A stretch of 64,000 bases of DNA from an uncultured bacterium (GCA_963798465.1 CAWCTC010000001.1:196315-260314); one strand, 5' to 3'; counted from the first letter of the stretch, positions 5,911-44,394 are shown. Numbers and translations: made by a program. Notes: generated by a model from the sequence alone, not told the origin.

Positions 5911-5982
5911 GCCCTTGTAGTTCAATGGATAGAACAGAGCTCTTCTAAGGCTTTGATGTAGGTTCGATTCCTGCCAGGGGCA
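5911..5982 (+). tRNA. tRNA-Arg (anticodon TCT)
   Basis: Manual cloverleaf: acceptor GCCCTTG/CAGGGGC, D arm GTTC..GAAC, anticodon loop CTTCTAA, T arm GTAGG-TTCGATT-CCTGC. No encoded CCA. Confidence 0.85.
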
Positions 5983-6019
5983 CAAAATTAAAAAACGCTG
6001 AAAGGCGTTTTTTAATTTT

Positions 6020-6065
6020 GTGCCCCTGAGGAAGTGCTCAGACGCACTTCCGTGCAGGAATCGAA
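6020..6065 (+). repeat. tRNA-Arg 3'-half mirror module
   Basis: GTGCCCCTG is the reverse complement of the tRNA acceptor 3' strand. It is followed by A + 22-nt hairpin GGAAGTGC-TCAGAC-GCACTTCC + GT. GCAGGAATCGAA is then the reverse complement of the T-loop and T-stem 3' strand. Confidence 0.8.
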
Positions 6066-6145
6066 AAACCTTGAGTATATTTTTGAGCTTTTACTAAAGT
6101 GAAAAAATACGAATGGTTGAAATGCGAATACATGTAGCATTTCAA

Positions 6146-6207
6146 AGACGGAGACTGACGAGTCGAGTCGGGGTCGAGCAAATTTTCAGTAGAAAATTAT
6201 GCGTGAC
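6146..6207 (+). repeat. GC-rich box (AGACGGAG...GTCGAG) plus 25-nt box TTTTCAGTAGAAAATTATGCGTGAC
   Basis: The 25-nt box matches 49192-49216 at 24/25 positions. The GC-rich box resembles 49107-49136, 17604-17640 and the box inside the tRNA-His units. Confidence 0.7.
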
Positions 6208-6373
6208 TACAGCTCCTGTAAGGAGAGATAAGTGTACTCACGGTCCTGCCAAGGGCACACGCATGTGAGACAGACCGAGAGGCTTAAATCCTCGCTTTTT
6301 TGGCGTTGAAAAAAACAACCCCGAAAGGAATCGAACCGAGAAATATTTTAACTATATTTTTCAATGTATCCCG

Positions 6374-7915
6374 CTAGTGAGACCGAGAGGGTTCGATTCC
6401 TATTAAGCGCACAAAATGTTTCTCATTATCTGTAAACTCAGATTTTAGCTTGTAAACTATGCTTAGTTCTGCGGTTTTAAACCCCGGATATGTGTATTCA
6501 ATATTTCTAGGAAAAATCAGCTCTCTTAAAACCCTTAGGTCTTTCACATCTAGGTTTTTCCACTCTTTAGGAAGATGTTTAAGAAAGTCTAAACTAGAGT
6601 CAATGACATTTTCTAATTCAAGTTCTGGAATGAAGATTTCATTAATAGCTTTTTCATGTTCATAAATATCAAATTTTATTTTTTCATTAGCTTCTGTAAA
6701 ATCTTCATCAGATATTTTTCCAGCCAATCTCAAATCAAGCAGTTTTTCTTTTTTATCTTTTCTCTCTAGTATTTTAGATTCAAAACCTGCTTTTGTTGCA
6801 GTTGTAGACTGGAGTTCCTGCTTATGAGCTATCTTAATTGTTTCTTTTAAGACTTCAAATAGATTATCATCAGGAGTTACATCTTTAAGAAGAGAGGTAA
6901 AGTCATTTTCAAAGATTTCCTTATTTATGGAAGTTCTTTTACCACACTCATAGCAATAGCAACTATAATAATGGTAGTATTTACCTCTACCTTTACTTTT
7001 TCCACCACTAATACTTCTACCACAGCCACCACACCTCACCCCTCTCAAAGGATACATGGGATTATCAATGTTCCTTGGAAATTTTTTACTAGCAGATTTA
7101 TTTCTTGCAGATTGAGCTTCAATAAACAACTTCTCACTAATGATTGGTTCATGATTGCCTTTAATAGATATTTCAAATTTGGGAGAAATAATCCATCCAT
7201 AATATACTGGGTTTTTAATTATGTTAGCTACAAGCTGTTTATAGAATTTTATTCCACGGCGACTTTTTAAACCAGTTTTGTTAACTTTTTTTGCCAATTC
7301 TTTAAAAGTATATTTACCTGTAGCATATTCCTCAAAAAGCATTTTAATAATAGGTGCTCTTTCTGGGTGAGGAATTATTATTTTGTTGCCAAGTCTATCT
7401 ATAGTATTTACATAGCCCCAAGGAGCTTTTGAATTGACATAACCTTTAAGAGTTCTGGCTTTCATACCATCAAAAGTTCTTTGTGATTTTACATTATTAT
7501 CAAATTCCGCAAATGAAATAAGCATATTTTCATATAGCTTACCAGCCGGAGTATCTTCAATATTTTCAGTGGCAGAAACTAAAGTAATACCCATTTTGTT
7601 TAAAGAATATTTGAGATATGGATAATCAAACGAAGATCTAGAAAGTCTGTCCACTTTGTAGAAAATAATAATTCCAATTTTATTTTTATTTTTTTCACAG
7701 TATCTCAACATCAATTGGAGTTGAGTTCTGTTTGCAGTTTTAGCACTCTCTCCTTCTTCTCTGAATATCTCTAAAACTTCATATCCATGCTTCAGTGCAT
7801 ATTCTCTACAAGTTTTTTCTTGGCTTCCCAAACTAAAATTTAGGATCTGCTCTTTTGAAGAAACCCTTACGTAAACCAAAGCATTCTTTGGTTTTATTTT
7901 ATTTATATTTTTCAT
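6374..7915 (-). CDS. large serine recombinase (resolvase catalytic domain + recombinase domain + zinc ribbon)
   Basis: ALVYVRVSSKEQ catalytic motif, YKVDRLSRS, Cys-rich CGGCGRSISGG...YYSCYCYECGK, and a C-terminal coiled-coil region. Confidence 0.85.
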   Translation of the reverse strand: MKNINKIKPKNALVYVRVSSKEQILNFSLGSQEKTCREYALKHGYEVLEIFREEGESAKTANRTQLQLMLRYCEKNKNKIGIIIFYKVDRLSRSSFDYPYLKYSLNKMGITLVSATENIEDTPAGKLYENMLISFAEFDNNVKSQRTFDGMKARTLKGYVNSKAPWGYVNTIDRLGNKIIIPHPERAPIIKMLFEEYATGKYTFKELAKKVNKTGLKSRRGIKFYKQLVANIIKNPVYYGWIISPKFEISIKGNHEPIISEKLFIEAQSARNKSASKKFPRNIDNPMYPLRGVRCGGCGRSISGGKSKGRGKYYHYYSCYCYECGKRTSINKEIFENDFTSLLKDVTPDDNLFEVLKETIKIAHKQELQSTTATKAGFESKILERKDKKEKLLDLRLAGKISDEDFTEANEKIKFDIYEHEKAINEIFIPELELENVIDSSLDFLKHLPKEWKNLDVKDLRVLRELIFPRNIEYTYPGFKTAELSIVYKLKSEFTDNEKHFVRLIGIEPSRSH

Positions 7916-7973: not shown

Positions 7974-8303
7974 TTAATAAATTGCTATCAGTTCTATTCC
8001 GTAATCTTTAATCATCTTTTCTATCCTCTGAAGCTCATCTGGTATTACCGATATTTTGCTCTTATCATTTACGATAAAAGCTCTTATATTTTCTTTATAG
8101 TCATTGCAATACCTTAAAGCTTCTCTCAAATAATATCTGTCACTTACTTTGGTAGCCACGGTATTCTCTCTGAAGATTTTAACTGTACATCCCAATTTCT
8201 TTGCTCTGTTTTTACAGAAGAGTTCCTGTAAAACTGCTTTTCTACATTCACCCTTAACATACGCCCGAGAACTGATAAAAATAACCACGATGTTTTTTTT
8301 CAT
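7974..8303 (-). CDS. small resolvase-catalytic-domain-like protein (degenerate, no DNA-binding domain)
   Basis: 109 aa, with the layout IVVIFISSRAY...LREALRYC...IRAFIVNDKSKIS...GIELIAI, which resembles a serine-recombinase N-terminal domain. It lies directly upstream of the large recombinase. Confidence 0.4.
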   Translation of the reverse strand: MKKNIVVIFISSRAYVKGECRKAVLQELFCKNRAKKLGCTVKIFRENTVATKVSDRYYLREALRYCNDYKENIRAFIVNDKSKISVIPDELQRIEKMIKDYGIELIAIY

Positions 8304-8365: not shown

Positions 8366-9480
8366 TATCTAGTTTGTATCCTTGTCCTTATGTTGTTTTG
8401 CCTTTTCTAGAGGCTCTTTTCTTAGCGAGTCCAACCAAAAAGACACTGAGATTGTATAAATGCTCAGCCTTTTTGTTTATTTCTTCTTCTCCTAAATTCC
8501 TAAAATGCAGAGAAAGTAGCTTTGCTATTTTCTCCAAATTTCCAGTATTATTTAACACTTTATTGAGGAGTTAGTGTTTTTACCATTTTTAGGAATAAAA
8601 AAACTAACTACCAAAATTAAAAGCACATCTCTATTTTAAAAAGAGATTTGCATTTAACTTTAAGAGCTAGTTTTATAACAATATTGTTTCTTTTTAATCT
8701 ATGGTTTGGACGAGGTCCAAAACGCAGTAATTTCTGTAAAAATACAATATTATCATCAGCAACACTTTGAACTTATGGGTTCTCGGATGTACGAAGTCAT
8801 GACACGGCCTGTCATTATTTATCCCCTAGAATTTGGGGTTTATGGCTTATAAATCTTGCAATGAACACTTTTCTGCACACAGAGTAATCCCAACTGAAAG
8901 AAATGTCAAATAAATTTAGCAATCAATCTGTGTTTAAACTGTGGAAAGAAAAATGGTCAATTTTCGTATGTAATTATTTGCGAAACTAGTTGAAAAACTA
9001 ACTAAAATTAATATTTGATATTTCAAATACACATACTGTAGCTGAATGTTTTCTAGAAATGATACAAAATATTTTTCAACTAGTTTAGCAAACATTTCTT
9101 TACCATTTATAAAGTAATTTATTTACAATTTTTACCCACTAAAAGACTAAAAAGCATCCCTTTTATTGAGACGTATATTTCAAAAATACCCTTGCATTAA
9201 AAATTCTATTTTCAATTAAATACAATTAAACAATGTTTTAGTCTTTAATTCAAAATAGTGCACTTGGAACAACATAGTCATTGTGATACTATTTCATTAC
9301 AACTTAATACGAAAGTAGCCTAAACTTGATGTAAATCAAGCATGGTGAAAATGAAGTCCCAGAAAGACATAAAAAACCCATCATATGGGGTTGTCTTTCT
9401 GGGCTATATTGGGAAACCAGTATAAACAGCTTTTGCTGTTAACCATGTGGTGGGCTTTTTGTGTACATAAAATATAAATA

Positions 9481-10974: not shown

Positions 10975-12150
10975 ATGACCATAGAAGAAGAAATAACACC
11001 AAGTGATTTTAGAGAGGTTCCTTACGGCGAAAGTAAGATTTTTTTTGATAAAAAATATGTTTTTCATGAACATTTTCAACATAAGAAAAAAACACGCAGA
11101 TTTCCTTATTGCAAAAATATTCTTGCCTTTATATCTGAAAATCCAGGATTAAATATTTATTTTACTTTGGATGAAAAAATAAAACCATTTAAGAAGATTA
11201 AAGATGGCTATCTTATAAATATTGATTCATATATGACATTTTGTGAGGCTATCCAAAGTAGAACTACTGGAAGAGCCAAGGCTTTTCTAAGTCAAAATCT
11301 TAATTTAAAAGACATCAGTGCGACAAAAAAAGATAAAGAAGAATATATTAAAGCAAACGCTGATGAAAAAATTCTTTTAGAAGCCTGTAAAAATCTTGAT
11401 CCTGAGTCTAAAAAAAATATAACTGATGCTTTAAATCAATTACAACCTGCCAATCAAAATGATGAGACTAAAAGACAAGATATAAAAAGCGAGGAGTTTA
11501 TTTTATTGTTTTCTAAATTTCTTTCCGATAAAGACGTCCAGCTAGCTATTATTCAAAATACTCCTAAAATTCAGATTCAAATTCTTAAAGCACATGTTTC
11601 TTTTCTTAAAGAAAATTTAGATAAGAATGAAACATTTATTCAAAATTGGATTGATGAAGATGATGGAAAGTATAGAAAACAAAGATGTCTTATTTTTGGA
11701 ATAGATTATGTAGATCCAAAACGAGAGGGGAGATTGTCTGGTAAAAAATTTGATGTTCTAGCAGAACAAAACAGAGATAACCACGTAATTATTGAATTAA
11801 AATCTCCGAATGCGGATGTATTTGACATTGAATTAAAACCAAATGCTAATGGTGGAGAAGTTGAAGAATTTAGAATCTCTAAAGAATTAGCTAGAGCTAT
11901 ACCGCAAGTACTTGGATATAAAAAATGGTATGGAGGCGCAACCACTGAAGAAATAAAAGAGCTTGGTCTGAAAGAAAAGAAAAATATATCACGTTGTATT
12001 ATTGTTATTGGACAAACTAAAGAATCAGAAGTTTGGAAAGAAAATCTAAATTGTTTAAGAAGCAGCTTATCTTCAATAGACGTATATACTTACACTGATT
12101 TAATACATAAGTTAGAAAATACAATTAAAAATCTTGAGGAAAATCTATAG
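10975..12150 (+). CDS. Shedu-like (DUF4263-type) PD-(D/E)xK nuclease, putative anti-phage effector
   Basis: The C-terminal half (ETFIQNWI...KFDVLAEQNRDNHVIIELKSPNADVF...AIPQVLGYKKWY...CIIVIGQTKE...IDVYTYTDLIHKLENTI) follows the DUF4263 order of motifs. Confidence 0.55.
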   Translation: MTIEEEITPSDFREVPYGESKIFFDKKYVFHEHFQHKKKTRRFPYCKNILAFISENPGLNIYFTLDEKIKPFKKIKDGYLINIDSYMTFCEAIQSRTTGRAKAFLSQNLNLKDISATKKDKEEYIKANADEKILLEACKNLDPESKKNITDALNQLQPANQNDETKRQDIKSEEFILLFSKFLSDKDVQLAIIQNTPKIQIQILKAHVSFLKENLDKNETFIQNWIDEDDGKYRKQRCLIFGIDYVDPKREGRLSGKKFDVLAEQNRDNHVIIELKSPNADVFDIELKPNANGGEVEEFRISKELARAIPQVLGYKKWYGGATTEEIKELGLKEKKNISRCIIVIGQTKESEVWKENLNCLRSSLSSIDVYTYTDLIHKLENTIKNLEENL

Positions 12151-17434: not shown

Positions 17435-17508
17435 GGGCGCTTAGCTCAGTTGGTTAGAGCACCTCATTTACACTGAGGGGGTCAGGGGTTCGAATCCCTT
17501 AGCGCCCA
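17435..17508 (+). tRNA. tRNA-Val (anticodon TAC)
   Basis: Manual cloverleaf: GGGCGCT/AGCGCCC acceptor, GCTC..GAGC D stem, anticodon loop TTTACAC, T arm AGGGG-TTCGAAT-CCCTT. No CCA. Confidence 0.85.
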
Positions 17509-17539
17509 CAAATAAAATCTGCGACAGCAGATTTTTTGA

Positions 17540-17584
17540 TGGGCGCTAGCACGCAAATTGCTTTGCGTGCGTAAGGGATTCGAA
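17540..17584 (+). repeat. tRNA-Val 3'-half mirror module
   Basis: TGGGCGCT is the reverse complement of the acceptor 3' strand. It is followed by A + 22-nt hairpin GCACGCAAA-TTGC-TTTGCGTGC + GT. AAGGGATTCGAA is then the reverse complement of the T-loop and T-stem 3' strand. Confidence 0.8.
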
Positions 17585-17702
17585 AGACTTTTCCGTGTCG
17601 AGTGAAACGAGACGGAAAAGTACCCGCGACGGTCGTCGAGAATCCCTGAGTTGTTTAAATAGCAGTTATCTCAAATCTATGCTAAATTATTAAAATAAAT
17701 TT

Positions 17703-18454: not shown

Positions 18455-18895
18455 GTGCTAAATTACATAACCTATGGAATTGAAAAAATCAAGACATCGC
18501 CTATAGACATGGAAGCCAGAAAAAAGATTGATATGAGATCTGGAGACACTGTTCGTGTTTGGCAGAAAATACAGGAAGGAGAAAAAACAAGACTTCAAGC
18601 TTTTGAAGGAATGGTTTTGGCTTTGAAACATGGAAAAGAAAATGGCGGAACTTTTACTGTCAGAAGAGTCGTGGATGATGTCGGAGTTGAAAGAATTTTC
18701 CCATTATATTCTCCATCTATCGATTCGATCGAAGTTTTGAAGAGAGCACAAGTAAGAAGAGCAAAACTTTATTACATCAGAGAAAAAGCCACTAAAGAAT
18801 TGAAGAGACATTTGAAGAGCGAGCTTCTTGGAGCCAGAAAAGAAAGCAATACCGATACGAAAAAGGCAGAAAAAGAAAAGAAAGAAGAGAAATAA
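18455..18895 (+). CDS. rplS: 50S ribosomal protein L19 (start may be ATG 18509), Lys-rich C-terminal tail
   Basis: [31 protein letters not shown]...[17 protein letters not shown] is a clear L19. Confidence 0.85.
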
Positions 18896-18905
18896 TTTGA
18901 GCAAA

Positions 18906-18935
18906 CAAAAAAACCACCAGGGAGTGGTTTTTTTG
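18906..18935 (+). terminator. intrinsic terminator after rplS
   Basis: AACCAC-CAGGGA-GTGGTT hairpin followed by a T run. Confidence 0.6.
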
Positions 18936-18994
18936 TCCAATTAAATTGGTAGACGCTACATCCTTGAGCCAAATATATAAGATGATATAATAAG

Positions 18995-19678
18995 ATGGTG
19001 AAAAGGGGACCAAAACCAAGAAGTAAAGTAAAAATAAAATGGTCTGCAAATTTTGCTTATGCAATCGGGCTTATTGCAACAGATGGCAATTTATCTCCCG
19101 ACGGCAGACATATATCATTTACTTCAAAAGATATTGAACAAATCAATAATTATCAAAAAGCATTAAAAATTAGTTGCAGTATAGGAAAAAAAAGTAATGG
19201 TTTTGTTAAAGAAAAAAAATATTATGTAGTACAGTTTAGCGATATTTTTTTCTATCAATTTTTAGAATCTATTGGAATAACTCGTGCAAAATCAAAAACT
19301 CTGGGTAAAATAGATGTTCCATCAAAATATTTTTTTGATTTTTTACGAGGCTCATTTGATGGCGATGGTACATTTTATTCATATTGGGATAAAAGATGGA
19401 AATCTAGTTTCATGTTTTATTTGGAATTTATATCAGCGAGTAAAAAACATATCTTATGGATAAGATCTGAGATTGAAAAGAGATTAAAGATTAGAGGACA
19501 TATAACTAATGATGGCAGTAAAAAAACGTTACAATTAAAATATGCCAAAAGAGAATCGCTGGAAATTATTAAAAGAATGTACTACAATCAAACGGTTGTT
19601 TGTTTATCCCGCAAGCGTATTAAAATTATCAAAGTTTTAAAGATTGAACATAATCAGCAAAAGAGGTATGAGTTTTGA
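18995..19678 (+). CDS. free-standing LAGLIDADG-family homing endonuclease
   Basis: Two LAGLIDADG-type motifs: AIGLIATDGNL and FLRGSFDGDGTF. Confidence 0.75.
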   Translation: MVKRGPKPRSKVKIKWSANFAYAIGLIATDGNLSPDGRHISFTSKDIEQINNYQKALKISCSIGKKSNGFVKEKKYYVVQFSDIFFYQFLESIGITRAKSKTLGKIDVPSKYFFDFLRGSFDGDGTFYSYWDKRWKSSFMFYLEFISASKKHILWIRSEIEKRLKIRGHITNDGSKKTLQLKYAKRESLEIIKRMYYNQTVVCLSRKRIKIIKVLKIEHNQQKRYEF

Positions 19679-19687
19679 CAAAATAAT

Positions 19688-19769
19688 GCACGGGTGTTGT
19701 AACTGGTAGCCAAGTATGCTTGAGGTGCATATGCCGTAAGGCGTGCGGGTTCAAGTCCCGCCCCGTGCA
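19688..19769 (+). tRNA. tRNA-Leu (anticodon GAG), long variable arm
   Basis: Acceptor GCACGGG/CCCGTGC, anticodon stem-loop TATGC-TTGAGGT-GCATA, variable arm CCGTAAGGCGT, T arm GCGGG-TTCAAGT-CCCGC. Confidence 0.8.
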
Positions 19770-19944
19770 CATTGCAAATAATTGAAAATCGCTAAACTTA
19801 TATTTAGAGGCGATTTTCTTTTGTAGTATACAAGTTGAACTGGGCGTAACGAAGGAGATTATGTCGGAGATTTGTCTTAAGTTCACGAAAGACAAAATGT
19901 CTGACCACACAAAATTCTTCAATATTATAAAAAATATTGTATAA

Positions 19945-20634
19945 TTGTTAAACATTATGAAAACATTTTACAAAATTTTCGGCCTATCTTTCATATGGTT
20001 CTCGGTCTGGGGCATTTTTATTTTTTATCTTCAGCCACAAGGAGTCGATTATATAAATAATTATCTTCTTACCGCCATATATTTTCTGCTTGTTATTGTC
20101 GCTCTCACTTCGATCTTCAAAAAAGAAATGGACGGTTATATCGATAAATTTTCACCGAGAGATTTATTGGCAATGGTTCTTTTTTCTATTGTCGTCATAT
20201 CGATATATTATTTTTTGAATGCCCTGAACATAAATACTCCGCTCGGAGCCATAAGAAATACTTTGCCCGCAGTTTTCCAGCTCGATCCAAAGTTTATAGT
20301 TACTAAAGCTTTTGAAATAATGTTCCAGCAGGTATTTTTCATGATAAGCATATATTATCTTTTTGGAAATAATGTTTCAAAATATATAGATATACTTTTG
20401 TTCGGTTTTTATACCATGTTTATACATCTGCCAATACTTTTTACGGATGCTTCCACGGGTAAAATCCTTTTTGGAGCTTCATTTTTTGTAGGTTTGATTT
20501 TTTCTTACTGCATTACAAAATCGAAAAAAGGTTTTATATACAGCTATATGATACACTTCGGACTATACGTGATTTTGACAGCGATTTTTTGGCTCGGAGG
20601 TTCAAAATTAATATCGGGTTTGGGAATAATTTAA
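19945..20634 (+). CDS. hypothetical polytopic membrane protein
   Basis: Listed ORF with 6-7 hydrophobic helices. The resemblance to the CPBP family is weak and not asserted. Confidence 0.4.
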   Translation: MLNIMKTFYKIFGLSFIWFSVWGIFIFYLQPQGVDYINNYLLTAIYFLLVIVALTSIFKKEMDGYIDKFSPRDLLAMVLFSIVVISIYYFLNALNINTPLGAIRNTLPAVFQLDPKFIVTKAFEIMFQQVFFMISIYYLFGNNVSKYIDILLFGFYTMFIHLPILFTDASTGKILFGASFFVGLIFSYCITKSKKGFIYSYMIHFGLYVILTAIFWLGGSKLISGLGII

Positions 20635-21268: not shown

Positions 21269-21340
21269 GGTGGCTATGGTGTAGCGGTAGCACAAGAGTT
21301 TGTGGAACTTTTAGTTCGGGTTCAACTCCCGATAGCCACC
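21269..21340 (+). tRNA. tRNA-His (anticodon GTG) with encoded G-1
   Basis: G-1 + GTGGCTA/TAGCCAC acceptor, discriminator C, anticodon loop TTGTGGA, T arm TCGGG-TTCAACT-CCCGA. Confidence 0.85.
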
Positions 21341-21342
21341 CA

Positions 21343-21906
21343 AATGAAAAAGCGGCGTTAAGCCGTCTTTTTCATTTGGGTGGCTAAGCAAGCAAACTGC
21401 TTTGCTTGCGTTCGGGAGTTGAACAGCGGAATGATGTTTTTTCAGCAGGAAAAACGAATGAGCTGGTGCCCAGACAAAGCTGAGTGACGACGAAGCTTTA
21501 GTCGAGGGAAACATCCCCGATAGCCACCCAAATGAAAAAGCGGCGTTAAGCCGTCTTTTTCATTTGGGTGGCTAAGCAAGCAAACTGCTTTGCTTGCGTT
21601 CGGGAGTTGAACAGCGGAATGATGTTTTTTCAGCAGGAAAAACGAATGAGCTGGTGCCCAGACAAAGCTGAGTGACGACGAAGCTTTAGTCGAGGGAAAC
21701 ATCCCCGATAGCCACCCAAATGAAAAAGCGGCGTTAAGCCGTCTTTTTCATTTGGGTGGCTAAGCAAGCAAACTGCTTTGCTTGCGTTCGGGAGTTGAAC
21801 AGCGGAATGATGTTTTTTCAGCAGGAAAAACGAATGAGCTGGTGCCCAGACAAAGCTGAGTGACGACGAGATGAGAGGCGAGGGAAACATCCCCGATAGC
21901 CACCCA
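21343..21906 (+). repeat. three head-to-tail 188-bp units (21343-21530, 21531-21718, 21719-21906), each ending in the last 15-16 nt of tRNA-His
   Basis: Read directly. Units 1 and 2 look identical, and unit 3 differs in a 9-nt patch at 21870-21878. The overlapping minus-strand ORFs in the track repeat the same peptide, confirming the period. Confidence 0.9.
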
Positions 21907-21976
21907 GCATTATTTTTAAGATAATATATCCTTATATTACTTTGGTTTTCCAATTCTACTCTGGTATACTTTTGGT

Positions 21977-22630
21977 ATGAATAAGGAAACAAAATTATTT
22001 ATTGAAAAATTACAAACACAATCCAATGTTCTCGGAATTATTTTATTCGGTTCTTGGGCAAGAGGAAATAATCGTCCAAACAGCGATATTGATTTGATAG
22101 TTATTCTTAAAGATGGGTTCAAAAGAACTGTAGAGTATAAAGATGACCAAGCTTTTGAAATTACATACACAACAGAAAAATCAGTTATGGAATATTGGAA
22201 AAGTCAAAAAGATGATTGTGCAGGGTTGTGGAAGGTGGCAAAAATTCTTTATGATAAAGATGGAACAATAAAAAAACTTGAAAAATTTGCTCAGAAAATA
22301 ATAAGCAAAGGAAAAGAACCATTAGACGAGACAAAATTAAATCATCTGAAATTTGATGCAGGAGATAGTTTAGAAGCAATAAGAGCTTTTTCTAAGACAG
22401 AACCAATATTAGCAAATTTTTTGTTAAATAATAAAATTTTTGGTCTAACTGAGTTATTTTTTGATATACGACAATTGTGGATACCTGCTCCCAAACAGAG
22501 ATTTTCTGAAATAAGAGAAATTAATCAAGAACTTTTTAATCTTCTGAACCGATTCTATCAAGAGAACATATTTCTTGTGGAAAAAATTAAGATTGCAGAG
22601 GAAATCACCCAAATAGTTTTTAAACAATAG
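21977..22630 (+). CDS. nucleotidyltransferase-domain protein (MNT/KNTase-like)
   Basis: GIILFGSWARGNNRPNSDIDLIVIL is the polymerase-beta-type NTase motif. Confidence 0.7.
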   Translation: MNKETKLFIEKLQTQSNVLGIILFGSWARGNNRPNSDIDLIVILKDGFKRTVEYKDDQAFEITYTTEKSVMEYWKSQKDDCAGLWKVAKILYDKDGTIKKLEKFAQKIISKGKEPLDETKLNHLKFDAGDSLEAIRAFSKTEPILANFLLNNKIFGLTELFFDIRQLWIPAPKQRFSEIREINQELFNLLNRFYQENIFLVEKIKIAEEITQIVFKQ

Positions 22631-22735
22631 TGTACTCGAGGGTAGGGTAAAAAGCGGGAATATAAATACTTGTATCATTTAATCTATCAAACACAGTTCT
22701 TACATCCTCTACAACGGCACCCAAGAGAATTTTTA
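22627..22735. repeat. copy 1 of a ~100-bp diverged direct repeat (minus strand reads as a start-less C-terminal protein fragment)
   Basis: It aligns with 22959-23052. The shared core is GGAATATAAATACT..ATCATTTAAT..AGTTCT.ACATC.TCT. Confidence 0.6.
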
Positions 22736-22776
22736 CTGTAAATATTTTTTAAAGACACTCGTGATATAATTTAGTC

Positions 22777-22944
22777 ATGAAAAAATATCCATTGTACATA
22801 TATGTGATTGGGACTGCTGTTGCATGGGCGATTGTTCTCACGCTCTCATGGTTTGGTGTTATCTGGAAACCCTTCCATAACGTTGTCACAGTATTTGGAG
22901 GTTTCGTGCTCGGAATGCTATATATGTATATTAGCATGAAGTGA
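22777..22944 (+). CDS. small (55-aa) two-TM membrane protein, below the ORF-track length cut-off
   Basis: ATG 22777 is preceded by GATATAAT. The product is MKKYPLYIYVIGTAVAWAIVLTLSWFGVIWKPFHNVVTVFGGFVLGMLYMYISMK*. This is preferred over the antisense 62-aa ORF. Confidence 0.35.
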   Translation: MKKYPLYIYVIGTAVAWAIVLTLSWFGVIWKPFHNVVTVFGGFVLGMLYMYISMK

Positions 22945-22958
22945 TTTGCAGTTAATAA

Positions 22959-23052
22959 ATAGTGTATTCAAAAATACTGGAATATAAATACTCACATCAT
23001 TTAATTTTGCAAAAATAGTTCTAACATCTTCTGCTACGATACCAACTTTTTA
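22959..23052. repeat. copy 2 of the ~100-bp diverged direct repeat
   Basis: See 22627-22735. The minus-strand reading is KVGIVAEDVRTIFAKLNDVSIYIPVF, against ..GAVVEDVRTVFDRLNDTSIYIPAF in copy 1. Confidence 0.6.
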
Positions 23053-38316: not shown

Positions 38317-38398
38317 GCGCCGGTCGTATAGTGGCAATTACACGAGACTGTAAATCTTGCGGCTTCGGCCTTCGGGGGTTCGAGTCCCTCCCGGCGCA
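38317..38398 (+). tRNA. tRNA-Tyr (anticodon GTA), long variable arm
   Basis: Acceptor GCGCCGG/CCGGCGC, anticodon loop CTGTAAA, variable arm, T arm GGGGG?TTCGAGTCCCTC region. No CCA. Confidence 0.8.
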
Positions 38399-38431
38399 CA
38401 TTGATGAGATAATGTGGCAGTGTTTGTTAAT

Positions 38432-38460
38432 TTGACATAATCTCAATATATCTATATAAT
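38432..38460 (+). promoter_or_regulatory. consensus sigma70-type promoter (TTGACA-17 nt-TATAAT) upstream of tyrS
   Basis: TTGACA at 38432-38437, a 17-nt spacer, TATAAT at 38455-38460. Confidence 0.6.
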
Positions 38461-38501
38461 ATACAGGTATAATTATTTAATAAATTTATTAGGTTAATAA
38501 T

Positions 38502-39899
38502 ATGGAAAAATTTGAAATGAAAAATAATATTGAAGATAACCATTCTGAGAATGGTGCTATTGATAAATCAAAAAAACATGTTAAAGAGAGTATAGAATCT
38601 CCTGATTTTTTGAATATATTAGAAAAAGAATTATTGGATAGAAGAGAATTTGATTTATCTGAATTATCTAGTAAAGAACAATTTGAATTGATTAAAGATA
38701 GGTCATTAAATATAATATCTGAAAATGATTTATTAGAGAGGCTTGAAAAATCAAAAAAGGAAGATAAACCTCTTGTTGTAAAATTCGGTATAGATCCAAC
38801 TGGATCTGAGATACATATTGGTCACGCAGTACCTATGGTTATAGTAAATAGATTACAAAGAATGGGTCATAAAGTAGTATTTGTTATAGGTGATTTTACA
38901 GCAAAGATAGGCGATCCAAGTGGAAGAACTGCAGAGCGTCCAGCATTAACTGATGAAATTATTACTCAAAATCTTAGTTCTTATAAAGAACAAATTAAAC
39001 CGTTTTTTGATTTATCAAAAGCTGAGATTTTACATAATGGTGATTGGTTAAATGATATTAAGTTACCCGATTTTGTTAAATTATTAAGTAAAATTAATGT
39101 TTCCGATTCTTTACAGAGAGATGATTTTCGTAAAAGATTATCAGAAGGACAAGGTTTGACACAAGCTGAACTTATATATTCCGTGATTATGGCTATGGAT
39201 TCTTTACATATTGATAATGATGTCGAGGTTGGTGGAGTTGATCAATTATTAAATTTACAGATGTGTAGAAAAGTTATGGAAATAGAAGGTAATAAACCTG
39301 AATGTTTGATAACAACAGGATTATTACCTGGTATAACAGGAAATGATCAAAAAATGAGTAAAAGTCTTGGAAATTATGTTGGATTATCGCATTCTTCAAA
39401 GGAAATATATGGGAGAATAATGTCAATACCAGATTCATTACTTGAAACTTACTTTAAAGCTATGTCTGAAATTAATGATGAGGAATGGGATATCTTGGAT
39501 AATATGATTAAAAATGGTGGTATAAATCCAATGGAGGTCAAAAAAATGTTAGCTAGATATATAGTGTCAGTATTACATAACAAAAATGAATCAGAAGATG
39601 CTGAAAAAGACTTTGCTTTAAGATTTTCTAAAAAAGATTATTTAGAATTAAATGATTTAAATTCGTACGAACAAGTTGATGGAAACTCTTCAATTTTAGA
39701 TTTTCTTTCAGAAAAAGAATTATTTAAATCAAAAGGAGATATTAGAAGACTTGCTACAAGTGGAGCAATTAAGATAATAAGTAATGATGGCACAATTATA
39801 AAAGTAGATAATCCTTTAGATTCTTTTGAATCTAAGATATCACTTAAAGAATTTATATTGAAAATTGGTAAAAAAGTTCTATCAATAAAATTGAAGTAA
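38502..39899 (+). CDS. tyrS: tyrosyl-tRNA synthetase with ~85-aa N-terminal extension and S4-like C-terminal domain
   Basis: HIGH region GSEIHIGHAVPM, FVIGDFTAKIGDPSGR, KMSKS (DQKMSKSLGN). Confidence 0.8.
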   Translation: MEKFEMKNNIEDNHSENGAIDKSKKHVKESIESPDFLNILEKELLDRREFDLSELSSKEQFELIKDRSLNIISENDLLERLEKSKKEDKPLVVKFGIDPTGSEIHIGHAVPMVIVNRLQRMGHKVVFVIGDFTAKIGDPSGRTAERPALTDEIITQNLSSYKEQIKPFFDLSKAEILHNGDWLNDIKLPDFVKLLSKINVSDSLQRDDFRKRLSEGQGLTQAELIYSVIMAMDSLHIDNDVEVGGVDQLLNLQMCRKVMEIEGNKPECLITTGLLPGITGNDQKMSKSLGNYVGLSHSSKEIYGRIMSIPDSLLETYFKAMSEINDEEWDILDNMIKNGGINPMEVKKMLARYIVSVLHNKNESEDAEKDFALRFSKKDYLELNDLNSYEQVDGNSSILDFLSEKELFKSKGDIRRLATSGAIKIISNDGTIIKVDNPLDSFESKISLKEFILKIGKKVLSIKLK

Positions 39900-39900
39900 A

Positions 39901-40971
39901 ATGACGGAAAATATTTCGGAGAAGAATATAAACAAAGTGGTTTTTGACGATAGTTATTATTCTGAAATTATTAAAAAATATAACTATAATCCAGTTGACT
40001 TTAAAAAAATAAATTTTTCTATTAATAATTTAGATATCGCAACTCTAGAAAGTAAATTTGTCTGTCATCATAATGGAGATGTGTTTGTAGATAATATGAA
40101 AAAAGGACAAAAATCTATAATCACAACTGGTTTTGGTTTAAGTGGAAATCCTCATCTTGGTAGTATATCTGAAATGTTAAAAATCGTTGCTTTTTCAAAA
40201 GCTGGTTTAAATACCCAGGTAGTTCTTGGTGATCTTGATTCATATAATGCTAGAAATCAAGAAATTGATATTGTGCGTAAAAGAGTAAAATTATATATAA
40301 AATTTTTGAAAAATTTAGGATATAATAAAAATAATATATTAAGAGATCAATATTCTCACGTTGACGTATTACATACAGCTTTTATAATAGCCCACTATTT
40401 GACAGATGAAGATTTTACAGAAGCTGAAGAAGATATTTCTTATATATACAAAAAAGAAGGTATATATAAAAATTTTAGTTTCCCCATGAAACTTTCTTTA
40501 TTATTAATGATTGCTGATTTTATTCATCTAGGGACTGTTAATGGAAATAAAAATATTATGGTAATGTTAGGAATGGAAGAACATAAATATGTTCTTTTAG
40601 CTAAAAAAGTTGTTGAGAGGATGAACTTAAAAATTAACATTTCGGCAATTTACGGTAAAATAATAAAAGGATTAAATGGATATCCTAAGATGTGTAAGAG
40701 TATAAAAAAATCATCTATAAGCGTATTAAATACACCTAAAGAAATATTATCATTACTTTATAATAATAGTGATTCTTTAGATAATATTGATAATAATGCT
40801 GTTTTTCAAATGATGGAACAGACATCATATTTTACCGCATCTCAATTAAAAGATATTCGTTCTATTTGTAAAAGAGGGGATAAAAAAGAATGGACAAAAG
40901 TTATAAAAAAATATTCTATAATGTTGAATAAAATATTAAGTAAGTGGCCTAAAAATAAGGATTTATCTTAG
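39901..40971 (+). CDS. divergent class Ic aminoacyl-tRNA synthetase paralog (TrpRS-like)
   Basis: HIGH-like GLSGNPHLGS, VVLGDLDSYNAR, KMSKS-like YPKMCKS..ISVLNTPKEI. It starts 1 nt after the tyrS stop. Confidence 0.5.
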   Translation: MTENISEKNINKVVFDDSYYSEIIKKYNYNPVDFKKINFSINNLDIATLESKFVCHHNGDVFVDNMKKGQKSIITTGFGLSGNPHLGSISEMLKIVAFSKAGLNTQVVLGDLDSYNARNQEIDIVRKRVKLYIKFLKNLGYNKNNILRDQYSHVDVLHTAFIIAHYLTDEDFTEAEEDISYIYKKEGIYKNFSFPMKLSLLLMIADFIHLGTVNGNKNIMVMLGMEEHKYVLLAKKVVERMNLKINISAIYGKIIKGLNGYPKMCKSIKKSSISVLNTPKEILSLLYNNSDSLDNIDNNAVFQMMEQTSYFTASQLKDIRSICKRGDKKEWTKVIKKYSIMLNKILSKWPKNKDLS

Positions 40972-43682: not shown

Positions 43683-44394
43683 GGGGTCAGGAGCCTTTTT
43701 ATGATATACTCTATTCATGCCAAGAAATATTAGAGTAGATATTGCAGGAGAAATATATCATATAATAAATCGTGCAAATGCACGGATGAAGATTTTTGAT
43801 AATGATAAAGATTACAAACTATTTGAACAAGTATTAGAAGAAGCAAAGGATCGTACAGACATAAAAATATATGCATATTGTGTAATGCCAAATCACTGGC
43901 ATTTAGTTGTATCACCAAAAAATGATGGCAATCTATCAAAATTTATGGCTTGGTTCACTATGACACATACCCAAAGATGGCACTCAATGCACAAAAGTAT
44001 AGGAAGTGGTCATTTGTATCAAGGAAGATACAAATCATTTATTGTTCAAAGTAATGAATATTTTTTACAACTATGCAGATATGTGGAAAGAAATCCAGTA
44101 AGAGCAAAATTAGAAAAGAAAGCGCAAGGTTGGAAATGGGGAAGTCTATGGAGAAGAGAAAATGGAACTATAGAACAACTTAAAATTCTAAATTCATGGC
44201 CAACGGACACACCAAAAAACTATCTTGGTTGGGTAAATGAATCTGAATCAATAGAAGCACTCAGTCTAATTCGAAATAGTGTGAATAAAGGTAAACCCTA
44301 TGGTAAAATGTCGTGGATAGAAAAGAAAATTGATGAGTATAAACTTGAATCAACATTACGCAGTCCTGGAAGACCAAAGAAAGGCTCCTGACCC
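43683..44394 (+). mobile_element. RayT unit bracketed by 12-bp inverted repeats (GGGTCAGGAGCC ... GGCTCCTGACCC)
   Basis: Left repeat within 43683-43695, right repeat 44383-44394, which overlaps the stop codon. Confidence 0.6.
43717..44391 (+). CDS. REP-associated tyrosine transposase (RayT / IS200-like Y1 HUH transposase)
   Basis: YHIINRAN..., HUH motif MPNHWHLVV, catalytic-Tyr region LCRYVERNPVRA. Confidence 0.8.
   Translation: MPRNIRVDIAGEIYHIINRANARMKIFDNDKDYKLFEQVLEEAKDRTDIKIYAYCVMPNHWHLVVSPKNDGNLSKFMAWFTMTHTQRWHSMHKSIGSGHLYQGRYKSFIVQSNEYFLQLCRYVERNPVRAKLEKKAQGWKWGSLWRRENGTIEQLKILNSWPTDTPKNYLGWVNESESIEALSLIRNSVNKGKPYGKMSWIEKKIDEYKLESTLRSPGRPKKGS

Follow-up and report, generated by a model that had tools for sequence, protein, structure and literature searches.

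Insertion sequences of the IS200/IS605 family are the closest described parallel to the elements reported here. IS608 recognises its target through guide bases that lie 5' of a hairpin foot, inserts 3' of that target, uses one strand and passes through a single-stranded DNA (ssDNA) circle (PMC3201880). Its guides are 4 nt long and use non-canonical pairs and a special geometry, it leaves no direct repeat, and its right-end cleavage site differs from the target. REP and REPIN elements are short, extragenic, hairpin-forming and protein-less; they are near-identical, high-copy and genome-wide and flank the RAYT gene, whose single-copy Y1 product presumably mobilises them in trans. CIMEs and related integrative elements use tRNA 3' ends as their address, regenerate the end with a direct repeat and build heterogeneous tandem arrays. 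Reprogrammable addresses with a structured separator and a complement just upstream of the insertion point occur in the bridge (seek) RNAs of IS110/IS1111, which are encoded beside their recombinase, are expressed as RNA and read both strands around a 2-nt core with their loops, and in the EBS-IBS pairing of group II introns, which are at least 600 nt long, have domains V/VI and usually carry a reverse transcriptase (RT) ORF. Here we describe a 188-bp unit behind a tRNA-His gene that belongs to a large family of insertion cassettes without protein genes, ~120–300 bp long and inserted in one orientation, and compare it with these systems. The family is widespread and apparently undescribed: the literature, searched by sequence and by concept, held nothing relevant on these modules.

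The window, i.e. the whole 64-kb stretch of DNA that was analysed, encodes a tRNA-His(GTG) with an encoded G-1 at 21269..21341 on the plus strand (ARAGORN; Rfam tRNA, 60.5 bits); ARAGORN and Rfam place the tRNA body at 21270–21341 and G-1 at 21269. The last ~22 nt of this gene, namely the T-loop (L), the T-stem 3' strand (T) and the acceptor 3' strand (A) with N73 and CA, serve as target and address template in what follows. A 15-nt sequence comprising T and A, CCCGATAGCCACCCA, lies at 21328..21342 (+, exact match) and recurs exactly at 21516–21530, 21704–21718 and 21892–21906 (+), and TRF reported a 188-bp period, repeated 3.1 times with 98% matches, over 21328–21906. Unit 1 occupies 21343..21530 (+; covariance model (CM) score 139.3 bits; MFE/centroid fold z = −6.2), unit 2 follows at 21531..21718 (+; 0 differences from unit 1; 139.3 bits), and the distal unit 3 at 21719..21906 (+; 114.5 bits) has seven substitutions, all in 21870–21878. 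TRF and direct comparison thus agree with the first-pass annotation, which had described three tandem 188-bp units after tRNA-His with identical units 1 and 2.

In unit 1, all parts of which are on the plus strand, a spacer with a terminator hairpin (21343–21376) is followed by A', the reverse complement of the acceptor 3' strand (21377–21386), a conserved A (21387), the 22-nt hairpin P1 (21388–21409), a GT dinucleotide (21410–21411), T' (21412–21416) and L', the reverse complement of the T-loop (21417–21423); the conserved A, P1 and GT together form a 25-nt insert (21387–21411). The interior consists of helix P2 (21424–21465), a GUG linker (21466–21468), P3/P4 (21469–21508) and a 7-nt junction (21509–21515), and the unit ends in a closing T (21516–21520) and a closing A (21521–21530). 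Each unit has one copy of the acceptor complement TGGGTGGCTA, starting at 21377, 21565 and 21753, and one copy of the T-loop/T-stem complement TCGGGAGTTGAA, starting at 21412, 21600 and 21788. The terminator-like hairpin, both complements, the A with 22-nt hairpin and GT, and the direct copies were all recovered where the first-pass annotation had placed them. Its reading of the unit end as a direct copy of the last ~31 nt of the tRNA stands for the last 15 nt, which are exact, whereas the supposed T-arm-like hairpin is made up of the P3 3' strand and the 7-nt junction. Similarly, the differences of unit 3 are confined to the 9-nt patch noted before, but the damage goes beyond the CGAC-N9-GTCG hairpin and affects P4 and P3: the predicted MFE changes from −64.8 to −54.5 kcal/mol, with loss of the P4 3' strand and part of P3. 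By this predicted fold, unit 3 is probably an inactivated copy. The spacer hairpins account for three terminator-like sites on the sense strand (1.0 expected), and the promoter-site scan found no promoter-like site inside the His units.

An assembly artefact or a plain local tandem duplication could be suspected, given that units 1 and 2 are identical and that short-read assemblers can mis-count tandem copies, but its probability is negligible. Two independent Logan unitigs of run ERR11594402 show both repeat junctions and the unit-3 patch: L001 ends 30 nt into the His repeat, and L002 begins ~30 nt before the patch and supports it. Breaks at the edges of a repeat are what a de Bruijn graph yields when the repeat is real, so the His repeat is not an artefact; the number of three units is the count in the assembly. 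Moreover, hundreds of independent loci share the architecture.

The window has two other modules that had been grouped with the His array in the first-pass annotation. Behind tRNA-Val(TAC) (17435–17509), a module at 17510..17650 (+; 36.9 bits) comprises a spacer (17510–17539), A' (17540–17548), P1 (17549–17570), GT (17571–17572) and T'L' (17573–17584), followed by a class II domain and a partial closing copy (17640–17650). It is shared with the related contig L242 at 96% identity and is therefore an older insertion. Behind tRNA-Arg(TCT) (5911–5983), a module at 5985..6259 (+; 14.5 bits) comprises a spacer (5985–6018), A' (6019–6028), a variant P1 (GGAAGTGC-TCAGAC-GCACTTCC, 6030–6051), T'L' (6054–6065), a long domain with a GGGGTC...GAC hairpin (6170–6207) and the closing copy TCCTGCCAAGGGCACA (6244–6259); its CM score is low because its domain belongs to a different class. 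At the tRNA-His locus, blastn homology to L242 is lost at 21344 and returns at 23044. The remainder of this 1.7-kb insertion at the tRNA-His 3' end (21907..23043, +; blastn against a 92% identical relative) holds two small gene cassettes, the first with a nucleotidyltransferase ORF (21977–22630, +; Pfam, NCBIfam) and the second with an ORF for a 55-aa membrane peptide (22777–22944, +). Both cassettes end in a ~90-nt repeat (22628–22727 and 22960–23046), the last bases of which mimic a decayed tRNA-His end.

Searches with a 24-nt hairpin pattern returned at least 120 stretches in the metagenome scan and at least 119 in the genome scan, against ~4 expected. Among the hairpin matches listed, 167 of 258 lie at most 130 nt downstream of a tRNA gene on the same strand (all 20 isotypes) or of a tmRNA gene. 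A census blind to P1 found the architecture behind 87 of 370 other tRNA/tmRNA genes in more than 240 contigs, a recurrence that the first-pass annotation had asked for; among the contigs examined, the hosts are mostly Patescibacteria and Elusimicrobia. The order of parts is a hairpin spacer, the reverse complement of the acceptor 3' strand, a hairpin insert, the reverse complement of T-stem and T-loop, a compact structured domain, of which there are several classes, and the last 15–16 nt of the target in direct orientation. In 74 of the 87 census modules the insert measures 25 nt; it sits exactly at the 65/66 junction, and its hairpins belong to several unrelated sequence families. A conserved A precedes P1 in 242 of 243 instances; the GT after P1 was fixed by the search pattern. 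Most modules without an upstream tRNA call by ARAGORN still adjoin a tRNA-like 3' end that the program missed, and the adjacency of some modules to SmpB reflects tmRNA targets. A match in a Pedobacter isolate from the genome scan was rejected as a chance match. Together, these loci show that the family inserts directly after the 3' end (N73 + CA) of tRNA and tmRNA genes; the spacer hairpin is usually an intrinsic terminator, which keeps the tRNA gene functional. Variants that lack P1 or A' also occur, so P1 is not indispensable for persistence.

The inverted complement is specific to the gene that it follows. The 20-nt address matches its upstream tRNA with at most five mismatches in 123 of 190 cases (controls, 0/190), and variable T-loop positions fit the adjoining tRNA in 96 of 131 cases, where permuting the partners gives 12.5. 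L' complements the T-loop of the target and yet has no partner inside the module, and A' complements the genomic N73-CA and not the mature CCA end. The guide-like character proposed at first pass therefore survives as a split, target-specific complement that includes the T-loop, whereas membership among H/ACA or bridge RNAs does not, given the geometry and the lack of a linked IS110-type recombinase.

Comparison of orthologous loci, as also envisaged at first pass, points to mobility. The tRNA-His site carries no insertion in relatives L242–L251 (neighbouring genes 92%, 84% and 82% identical), of which L242–L248 have an identical tRNA-His, and in L252 a family member of a different class sits at the identical tRNA-His nucleotide, flanked by a 15–16-bp repeat and with the native trailer kept. 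The tRNA-Val locus holds four different modules across five relatives, and L070 and L103 differ by one module. This shows presence/absence polymorphism between close relatives. The His-type payload occurs behind eight targets (Tyr, Arg, Asp, Lys, Leu, Gly, His and tmRNA), between which only A', T'L' and the closing T-A differ; the address is rewritten when one payload sits behind different tRNAs. Arrays grow on the tRNA-proximal side and have decaying distal copies. We counted 186 single-sided, pair-breaking changes, and distal copies are truncated, which indicates decay after insertion, a selfish behaviour. Address and closing copy show 50 compensated co-changes where ~8 are expected. Some loci have larger islands bounded by repeats, and these islands contain no recombinase or RT. 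The proposal of a non-autonomous mobile element at tRNA 3' ends is thus strongly supported by empty and filled sites, swapped members and the eight targets of one payload.

Such a pattern might also arise by recombinase-mediated accretion at a tRNA att site, in which the modules would be CIME-like remnants ('naked attP') left by integrases of co-resident islands or phages, or by homology-facilitated recombination after DNA uptake through the 15–16-bp identity, with the inverted complement and the hairpins incidental or merely terminators. Direct repeats of the tRNA 3' end flanking the units, tRNA-proximal extension of arrays, the repeat-bounded islands, the two gene cassettes with decayed tRNA-end copies at the tRNA-His site and a large serine recombinase adjoining the tRNA-Arg locus would all fit. 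We nevertheless regard accretion as very unlikely. Homologues of the serine recombinase occur in only 2 of 239 module loci, and it is unrelated to the modules; no integrase was found in the neighbourhoods or islands of modules, and all-against-all clustering of neighbouring ORFs returned only housekeeping genes. One payload on eight targets, and one family on 20 isotypes plus tmRNA, span a range far wider than an att site read by a protein would permit. The address also matches T-loop bases outside the shared repeat, the payload is a covarying, strand-specific structure, and blastn of the unit against phage and plasmid collections and a search for the hairpin in IMG/VR (0 matches) returned nothing. 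The modules further depart from CIMEs in their size of 120–300 bp, in the hairpin that splits the inverted complement and in their covarying core.

The structured domain folds in a strand-specific manner, with covariation. In a consensus structure from 11 sequences, 26 of 38 pairs are compensatory. In an alignment of 124 sequences, 93.6% of the cells are paired, compared with 62.7% after shuffling and 27–46% after sliding, and the covariation score of 0.433 (against 0.106) was matched by none of 500 shuffles; the covarying fold includes conserved internal loops. The sense strand is the more stable one in all 59 domains compared, and it has twice as many G-U pairs; on these grounds a tRNA-like gene on the minus strand, with a shared bidirectional terminator, was considered and rejected. 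P1 itself has no strand signal (480 of 486 pairs Watson-Crick; G-U pairs, 0 on the plus and 3 on the minus strand). Terminal loops of the domains are seldom GNRA (5) or UNCG (3) and often GNA triloops (47 sense, 4 antisense), besides cGNNAg loops, whereas the terminators of the same elements have 16 GNRA, 5 UNCG and 2 GNA loops. The module loops presumably resemble DNA mini-hairpin loops and not RNA loops, an assignment for which we take the relative stabilities of DNA and RNA hairpins as a guide. The sense strand of the elements lies on the lagging-strand template.

An RNA reading of this fold is the main rival and has to be weighed, although we hold it to be rather unlikely. The module would be a small RNA gene in a tRNA frame: its sense transcript, made by read-through or co-transcription, would form a minihelix closed by its own 3' copy, with P1 substituting for the D and anticodon arms and the payload domain for the T-loop; it would be matured like a tRNA by RNase P, RNase Z and the CCA-adding enzyme, it might be aminoacylated, and payloads spread by recombination would act as decoys, sensors or guides on the cognate tRNA. 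As in known tRNA-like structures (the tRNA-like domain of tmRNA, viral 3' TLSs and tRNA-scaffolded RNAs), a coaxial acceptor/T-stem minihelix would keep identity elements, here those of the neighbouring tRNA such as G-1:C73, while foreign structure stands in for other arms; the His-identity minihelix (G-1:C73) is compatible with the sequence of the units. The cis-closing minihelix and the 25-nt hairpin insert exactly at the acceptor/T-stem junction look like tRNA mimicry and suggest recognition at the RNA level. The sense-specific fold with its conserved internal loops argues in the same direction, and so do the compensated changes that link the address to the closing copy in the closing helix, which could have been selected as part of an RNA fold. 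Spacers without a terminator also occur; they would allow co-transcription and have a conserved GAACGAAGTGA loop. In L035, a TATAAT-like box lies ~7 nt ahead of A', and the 3' end resembles CCA. Against an RNA gene stand the terminator upstream of most modules, the missing promoter-like site in the His units, the near absence of GNRA and UNCG loops together with frequent GNA triloops, the partnerless L' and the genomic rather than mature end read by A'. Truncations and pair-breaking changes are numerous, unlike in an RNA that benefits its host, and precise insertion with a 15–16-bp repeat and address rewriting are left unexplained. Unlike known tRNA-like structures, moreover, the modules take their frame from the neighbouring gene instead of using a fixed sequence, and a reverse complement of the T-loop, together with a ~90-nt domain, stands where the T-loop would be. 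The DNA-like loops and the terminators upstream point to ssDNA as the likelier active form. Of the tRNA-like RNA family suggested at first pass, the cis-closed minihelix is retained, while the upstream terminators, the promoter scan and the DNA-like loops speak against RNA activity.

With IS200/IS605 elements and PATEs, the modules share one-orientation insertion directly 3' of the target, base-paired reading at a hairpin foot, a strand-specific fold and the lagging-strand template. A' abuts the 5' foot of P1 and is complementary to the bases just left of the insertion point, as guide bases of that family do. Like ORF-less IS200/IS605 derivatives, the modules are small and non-coding, and would depend on an enzyme supplied in trans; the genome does encode a Y1 HUH protein. 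They differ from IS608 in guides of 8–10 + 12 nt that form ordinary antiparallel duplexes at both hairpin feet, and in a right end that equals the target, which accounts for the 15–16-bp direct repeat. Instead of fixed ends without target duplication, module ends vary with the tRNA and are rewritten per target, and the interior is a conserved multi-helix domain.

The explanation that we favour, though with somewhat less than even confidence, is base-pair-guided insertion of a folded single strand that follows the logic of IS200/IS605 in the form of a protein-less tRNA-end cassette. The element would travel as a folded single strand, with the P1 hairpin as a handle for a structure-specific enzyme given in trans. 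Address bases at both feet of P1 would pair with the target strand (L-T-A) to form a three-way junction, which would fix the point of cutting and joining ~10 nt away, at the end of the acceptor strand. If the right end of the element (T-A) were read likewise, excision, re-insertion and tandem arrays would become possible, and the His array would consist of two intact copies (units 1 and 2) and an inactivated one (unit 3). Addresses might, hypothetically, be rewritten by palindrome-templated correction against the new flank. More tentatively still, the family may represent minimal mobile elements of a new class that are addressed by nucleic acid: ~150-nt cassettes whose sole targeting information is a hairpin-split complement of ~20 nt, rewritable to any tRNA or tmRNA, and which are moved by a small structure-specific enzyme encoded by the host or by an insertion sequence.

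The split address would also suit RNA-guided recombination, in which a transcript serves as a programmable guide, in the manner of an IS110 bridge RNA or a group II intron EBS, pairs with the non-template strand of the tRNA gene and brings in a recombinase, nuclease or RT, encoded elsewhere, to insert the DNA copy: the split guide around a hairpin complements the left flank of the insertion point, the address is rewritable, and the payload could be a structured scaffold. This is a distinctly improbable account, slightly more so than accretion. No IS110-type, RT, TnpB or Cas gene was found in the neighbourhoods and islands of modules, both address halves are contiguous on one strand, unlike the loops of bridge RNAs, terminators precede the modules, and their loops are of the DNA type. 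Group II introns are in addition far longer than the 120–300 nt of the modules. Rfam searches at E ≤ 10 of the His and Arg loci gave only chance-level miRNA/sRNA matches and a glmS match of 11 bits, with no TLS, group II intron, HEARO or IS605-orfB, and the whole window, searched with Rfam 15 (4227 models) at the gathering threshold, had no family on the units, in keeping with the novelty claimed at first pass. ARAGORN called five genuine tRNAs in the window and none of the units as tRNA or tmRNA.

Other known elements were compared and set aside. In box H/ACA guide RNAs, the pseudouridylation pocket leaves two target nucleotides unpaired, the ACA/ANA box lies 14–16 nt away, and the associated proteins are Cbf5, Nop10, Gar1 and L7Ae; in the modules the target pairs contiguously, without an unpaired dinucleotide or a conserved position for an ACA box, and the hosts are bacterial. 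MITEs have fixed terminal inverted repeats, a DDE transposase and a short target-site duplication of fixed length, and here the inverted complement is target-derived and varies between copies, while the 15–16-bp repeat is the tRNA end. tRNA-primed reverse transcription from a PBS-like site is disfavoured, as A' fits the genomic N73-CA, a hairpin interrupts the site and no RT is linked. The idea of a folded hairpin with a bulge is analogous to integron attC sites, whose cassettes go with an IntI integrase and an attI platform; by eye, module ends are off the RYYYAAC / GTTRRRY core consensus, and no IntI was seen in the sequence examined.

For the preferred reading of guided single-strand insertion, the leading candidate mobiliser, on sequence grounds, is a 224-aa Y1 HUH (IS200-like/RAYT-like) enzyme encoded 22 kb from the His array at 43717–44391 (+; Pfam Y1_Tnp, E = 2e-20) in the region 43684..44394. 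It scores best as RAYT, with 76 bits to the NCBIfam REP-associated tyrosine transposase (cut-off 80). The gene is bracketed by an inverted repeat, GGGTCAGGAGCCTTT, which occurs only twice in the window, its ends GGGGTCAGG...CCTGACCCC are conserved in three subfamilies, and it has ~6,946 relatives, many of them on contigs of 0.7–2 kb. The gene ends resemble a GGGTC-GNG...YST-GACC hairpin that is 15-fold enriched in modules, with a similar foot in 55 of 243; this similarity is confined to one domain class, and the His units lack it. The flanking repeat thus recalls the hairpin foot of one module class, as in REP-RAYT systems, but GGGTCAGGAGCCTTT is unrelated to P1, and P1 is unlike the gene's own ends. 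The modules also differ from REPs and REPINs in being low-copy, restricted to tRNA/tmRNA genes and target-specific in sequence. A Y1 homologue was present in 1 of 252 module loci, roughly what a single-copy gene would give as background.

If the address directs insertion, ~20 nt of easily rewritten sequence would set where a cassette lands without any element-encoded protein. Such a system would amount to natural, programmable insertion under long DNA (or RNA) guides; in mechanism it would bridge two groups, IS200/IS605 with their 4-nt DNA guides on one side and the RNA-guided IS110, TnpB and CRISPR-associated transposons on the other. If the modules act as RNAs instead, they would form a large family of tRNA-framed small RNAs in one-to-one relation with individual tRNAs, which would also be unprecedented. 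The family offers a handle on address re-templating, on single-strand attack at the 3' ends of tRNA genes and on the enzyme responsible. Guided insertion would account for a striking trait of the very small genomes of Patescibacteria and Elusimicrobia: roughly a quarter of the tRNA genes in the contigs examined carry cassettes that turn over between close relatives, so that tRNA 3' flanks are hot spots of plasticity that collect other cassettes as well.

Behind tRNA-His(GTG) (21270–21341, G-1 at 21269, plus strand; ARAGORN and Rfam), Tandem Repeats Finder detected a 188-bp period with 3.1 copies and 98% matches (21328–21906). Units 1 and 2 (21343–21530 and 21531–21718) are identical, as the first-pass annotation had stated, and unit 3 (21719–21906) has seven differing positions, all inside 21870–21878. 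The unit parts it had described were each found in place: a terminator-like hairpin; TGGGTGGCTA (A'), which is the reverse complement of the acceptor 3' strand together with N73 and the two bases behind it; an A, a 22-nt hairpin (P1) and GT; TCGGGAGTTGAA, the reverse complement of the T-loop and T-stem 3' strand (T'L', together with A' the address); about 92 nt of structured sequence (the domain); and CCCGATAGCCACCCA, an exact 15-nt direct copy of the tRNA end. Logan unitigs of ERR11594402 end 30 nt inside the repeat and resume ~30 nt upstream of the unit 3 patch, which matches the behaviour of de Bruijn graphs at true repeats, and the repeat is thus genuine (three copies as assembled).

Modules were also found behind tRNA-Val (17510–17650), with the layout of the His units, and tRNA-Arg (5985–6259), with another hairpin sequence; the layout was not clearly present behind the tRNA-Leu or tRNA-Tyr of the window. 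The stretch 18877–19950 is absent from the 92% relative (L242) and holds a LAGLIDADG-like ORF (18995–19678) and a different tRNA-Leu (19688–19770). Contig L248 shares this tRNA-Leu but lacks ~170 nt that follow the gene in the window (about 19790–19950, AAGTTGAAC...CTGACCACACA) and that may be a decayed module. The tRNA-Tyr is followed by a TyrRS/TrpRS-class synthetase gene (38502–39899) and a second, divergent class-I W/Y synthetase-like ORF (39901–40971; whole region 38317–40971). Just 3' of the Arg module, tRNA-like 3' remnants (GAGACCGAGAGG...GGTTCGATTCCTATTAAGCGCACA at ~6380–6413, a related one at ~6266–6295) adjoin the gene of a large serine recombinase (513 aa, minus strand, 6374–7915), and 6260–7915 is probably a separate integrated island, with a resolvase-like fragment farther on at 7974–8303. 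Between this island and a Shedu-like (SduA_C) gene (10975–12150) sits a full-length match to the Rfam LOOT RNA motif RF03000, a motif of no known function (9317–9440, plus strand, 75.7 bits). The window further encodes an unusual fusion of a RuvX/YqgF-type nuclease domain with a C-terminal tRNA-binding (MetRS C-terminal/CsaA-like) domain (1740–2528) and, with a 144-bp tandem repeat (3.0 copies, 67% matches, 50505–50939) inside ORF 50172–51215, probably a repeat-domain protein.

The architecture is far more general than was visible in the first-pass annotation. We searched metagenome and species-representative genome collections with a 24-nt hairpin pattern (four free positions) and identified at least 120 and at least 119 stretches, respectively, versus about four by chance. 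Hosts among the matches listed were overwhelmingly Patescibacteria (Paceibacterota, Saccharibacteria, Minisyncoccia, and others) and Elusimicrobia, with genuine copies also in one Muribaculaceae genome and two Burkholderiales MAGs; a match in Pedobacter was due to chance. A same-strand tRNA (all 20 isotypes) or tmRNA was located no more than 130 nt upstream of 167 of the 258 instances among the matches listed. Of 370 non-redundant tRNA/tmRNA genes in the contigs examined, 87 were followed by the architecture in a census blind to hairpin sequence. The insert between the complementary segments measured 25 nt in 74 of these 87 modules and comprised several unrelated hairpin sequence families; four modules had none. 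Geometry is conserved across modules and sequence is not. Several variants were observed: a second spacer type without terminator forms a short hairpin whose conserved loop is GAACGAAGTGA or GCGAAGCGA-like and which contains d(GCGAAGC)-type mini-hairpin motifs (L009, L041, L042, L101, L140, and other loci); the address is contiguous without P1 in the second module of L103, L242 (tRNA-Leu), L249 (tRNA-Val), L036, and L038; one module keeps T'L' alone (L248, tRNA-Val); and the P1 loop carries a ~30-nt insertion in L070 and L103.

RNAalifold analysis of 11 His-type modules predicted P1 followed by a helix P2, in which a GGA/GA internal loop is conserved and the hairpin varies; a GUG linker connects this helix to a P3/P4 domain. 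Compensatory changes affect 26 of the 38 predicted pairs. The single-sequence MFE structure of unit 1 is the same fold, and the unit 3 patch is predicted to abolish P4/P3. The covariance-model search proposed in the first-pass annotation, run with a model built from this 11-module alignment, returned 126 matches in 99 loci; the His units score 139, 139, and 115 bits, Val 37, and Arg 14.5. In the resulting alignment, which carries the caveat of being fitted to the model, 93.6% of cells were paired versus 62.7% in shuffled and 27–46% in slid registers, double changes occurred at all 38 pairs, and the covariation score of 0.433 versus 0.106 was matched by none of 500 shuffles. Two unconstrained P1 pairs were Watson-Crick in 480 of 486 cases, with 2–4 pair types. 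The tRNA-sense strand gave the better domain fold in all closed modules (59/59; mean 6.9 kcal/mol, twice the G-U pairs). The module is a real, strand-specific structure.

The hairpin flanks are the reverse complement of the upstream gene's 3' end. A 20-nt address with at most five mismatches was present in 123 of 190 cases (shuffled controls, 0/190), and a closing direct copy (at most two mismatches in 13 nt) followed 83–145 nt on in 55 of 190, versus one control. The His-type domain occurs behind tRNA-Tyr, Arg, Asp, Lys, Leu, Gly, and His and behind tmRNA; P1 and domain (AGCGGAAU ... GGGAGAAAYU) are nearly identical between these eight targets, while A', T'L', closing copy, and spacer all vary and fit the local gene. 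The complement reaches the target's T-loop, which lies outside the direct repeat and is without a partner within the module, and the variable T-loop positions 57/59/60 agree with the adjacent tRNA in 96 of 131 cases versus 12.5 with permuted partners. Since A' complements the genomic N73-CA and not the mature CCA end, the address derives from or reads the gene or precursor rather than the mature tRNA. We speculate that the rewriting of addresses is a templated correction inside the long palindrome formed by target, spacer, and address; the contiguous variants without P1 would then be explained as well.

Comparison of orthologous tRNA-His loci, fetched via the gene directly upstream, revealed both empty and filled sites; the modules are insertions, and their turnover is rapid. 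In relatives with an upstream gene 92%, 84%, and 82% identical, the same tRNA-His is followed directly by the native trailer. In L252 (upstream gene 80%), exactly the same nucleotide is occupied by a module that differs in domain class and P1 variant; it has its own terminator and a 15–16-bp tRNA-end repeat on its flanks and is followed by the trailer as in the empty relative L249. Among five related genomes the tRNA-Val locus has four different modules (one without P1, one without A' and P1), and at tRNA-Leu three relatives are empty and two filled. L070 and L103, whose flanks are 98% identical, are one whole module apart in a heterogeneous array, and distal array copies are often mutated or truncated. 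Of the three candidates put forward in the first pass, the evidence supports a tiny non-autonomous mobile element targeting tRNA 3' ends; our confidence in the existence of the family, its mobility, its target-matched address, and its structure is high. Precisely at the tRNA-His end, the window carries 1.7 kb of inserted DNA that the 92% relative lacks: the three modules and two small gene cassettes with decayed tRNA-end mimics at their ends, an arrangement that looks like cassette accretion. The cassettes (21907–23046) form a second element family tied to tRNA 3' ends and encode a nucleotidyltransferase (21977–22630) and a 55-aa membrane peptide (22777–22944). Each closes with a ~90-nt repeat (TAGTGTAYTC...GGAATATAAATACT...AGTTCTWACATCYTCT...), the final bases of which resemble the acceptor end of tRNA-His in decayed form, and the cassette motif GTTCTAAC also occurs upstream of P1 modules in three other loci (L023, L025, L151).

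Every His unit starts with a sense-strand intrinsic-terminator-like hairpin, and no promoter-like site was found inside the units. GNRA and UNCG loops dominate functional RNAs, whereas the classic hyperstable mini-hairpins of DNA have GNA triloops or d(cGNNAg) loops. Among 363 terminal loops of 223 domains, we counted five GNRA and three UNCG loops, and GNA triloops numbered 47 on the sense and four on the antisense strand; c-GNNA-g tetraloops such as GTCA were likewise common. The elements' own terminator hairpins had 16 GNRA, five UNCG, and two GNA loops. This contrast suggests that the terminators act as RNA and that the domain is selected as folded DNA, with which the position of the tRNA-sense strand as lagging-strand template (by GC skew) is weakly compatible. 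The main alternative, a tRNA-framed RNA gene, seems less likely to us. The tRNA-like geometry, the terminator-less spacers with their conserved GAACGAAGTGA loop, and 50 compensated co-changes between address and closing copy (~8 expected) speak for a possible function at the RNA level. The co-change analysis also yielded 186 single-sided changes that break a pair; many copies therefore decay after insertion, like selfish elements.

The modules do not show the defining features of tRNA, tmRNA, TLS, any Rfam 15 family, group II introns, H/ACA RNAs, IS110 bridge RNAs, MITEs, REP/REPINs, or integrase-borne islands. They share with IS200/IS605 the principle of a guide at the hairpin foot. Guide length and geometry set them apart, as do a right end identical to the target, hence the direct repeat, rewritable ends, and the absence of a demonstrated transposase. 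Nothing on them was found in the literature, by sequence or by concept, or in phage, plasmid, and viral collections. On these grounds we regard the modules as an undescribed kind of element. In a comparison by eye, their ends seemed not to match the core-site consensus of integron attC sites.

In the IS608 system, TnpA binds subterminal hairpins, 4-nt guide sequences 5' of the hairpin foot read cleavage and target sites, and an altered left guide retargets insertion (PMC3201880). The module layout has this logic: the element directly follows its target and inserts 3' of it, a subterminal hairpin has the complement of the target at its foot, and a single strand is active. We therefore propose, as inferred steps, that the target strand (T-loop, T-stem 3' strand, and acceptor 3' strand) would pair with A' and T'L' around P1 in a three-way junction, which would set cleavage and joining ~10 nt away at the acceptor-strand end, the identical right end being read in the same manner. 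Such a scheme would account for the repeat and the arrays, for the precision of the insertion point, and for the conservation of the 25-nt handle. Single-stranded DNA guide-hairpin insertion by an HUH-type enzyme is a tentative mechanism, plausible but somewhat short of probable.

No linked protein was found, the module neighbours being housekeeping genes; homologues of the serine recombinase by tRNA-Arg occur in just 2 of 239 loci, and neither recombinase nor RT was found in larger repeat-bounded islands. The commonest neighbour is a YraN/UPF0102-type predicted endonuclease (10 of ~120 metagenome loci among the matches listed, e.g., L106; within ~0.7 kb, either orientation), which may simply reflect conserved tRNA-gene neighbourhoods. 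A candidate mobiliser acting in trans is a RAYT-like Y1 HUH protein (224 aa, 43717–44391) with ~6,946 relatives; those with a named source are mostly from Patescibacteria, and many are on 0.7–2 kb contigs. Its gene (43684–44394) is bracketed by a 15-bp inverted repeat overlapping its stop codon. All relatives are flanked by conserved GGGGTCAGG...CCTGACCCC with short iterated repeats outside, and the gene appears to be an IS-like element that is active in Patescibacteria. These ends resemble a GGGTC-GNG...YST-GACC hairpin that is present in 55 of 243 modules and 15-fold enriched there, a similarity confined to one domain class that does not include the His units; P1 is unrelated to the enzyme's own ends, and Y1 homologues were found in just 1 of 252 module loci examined. 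Should a Y1 enzyme prove to be the mobiliser, the modules would have to be classed within the IS200/IS605 and REP world, as a radical variant.
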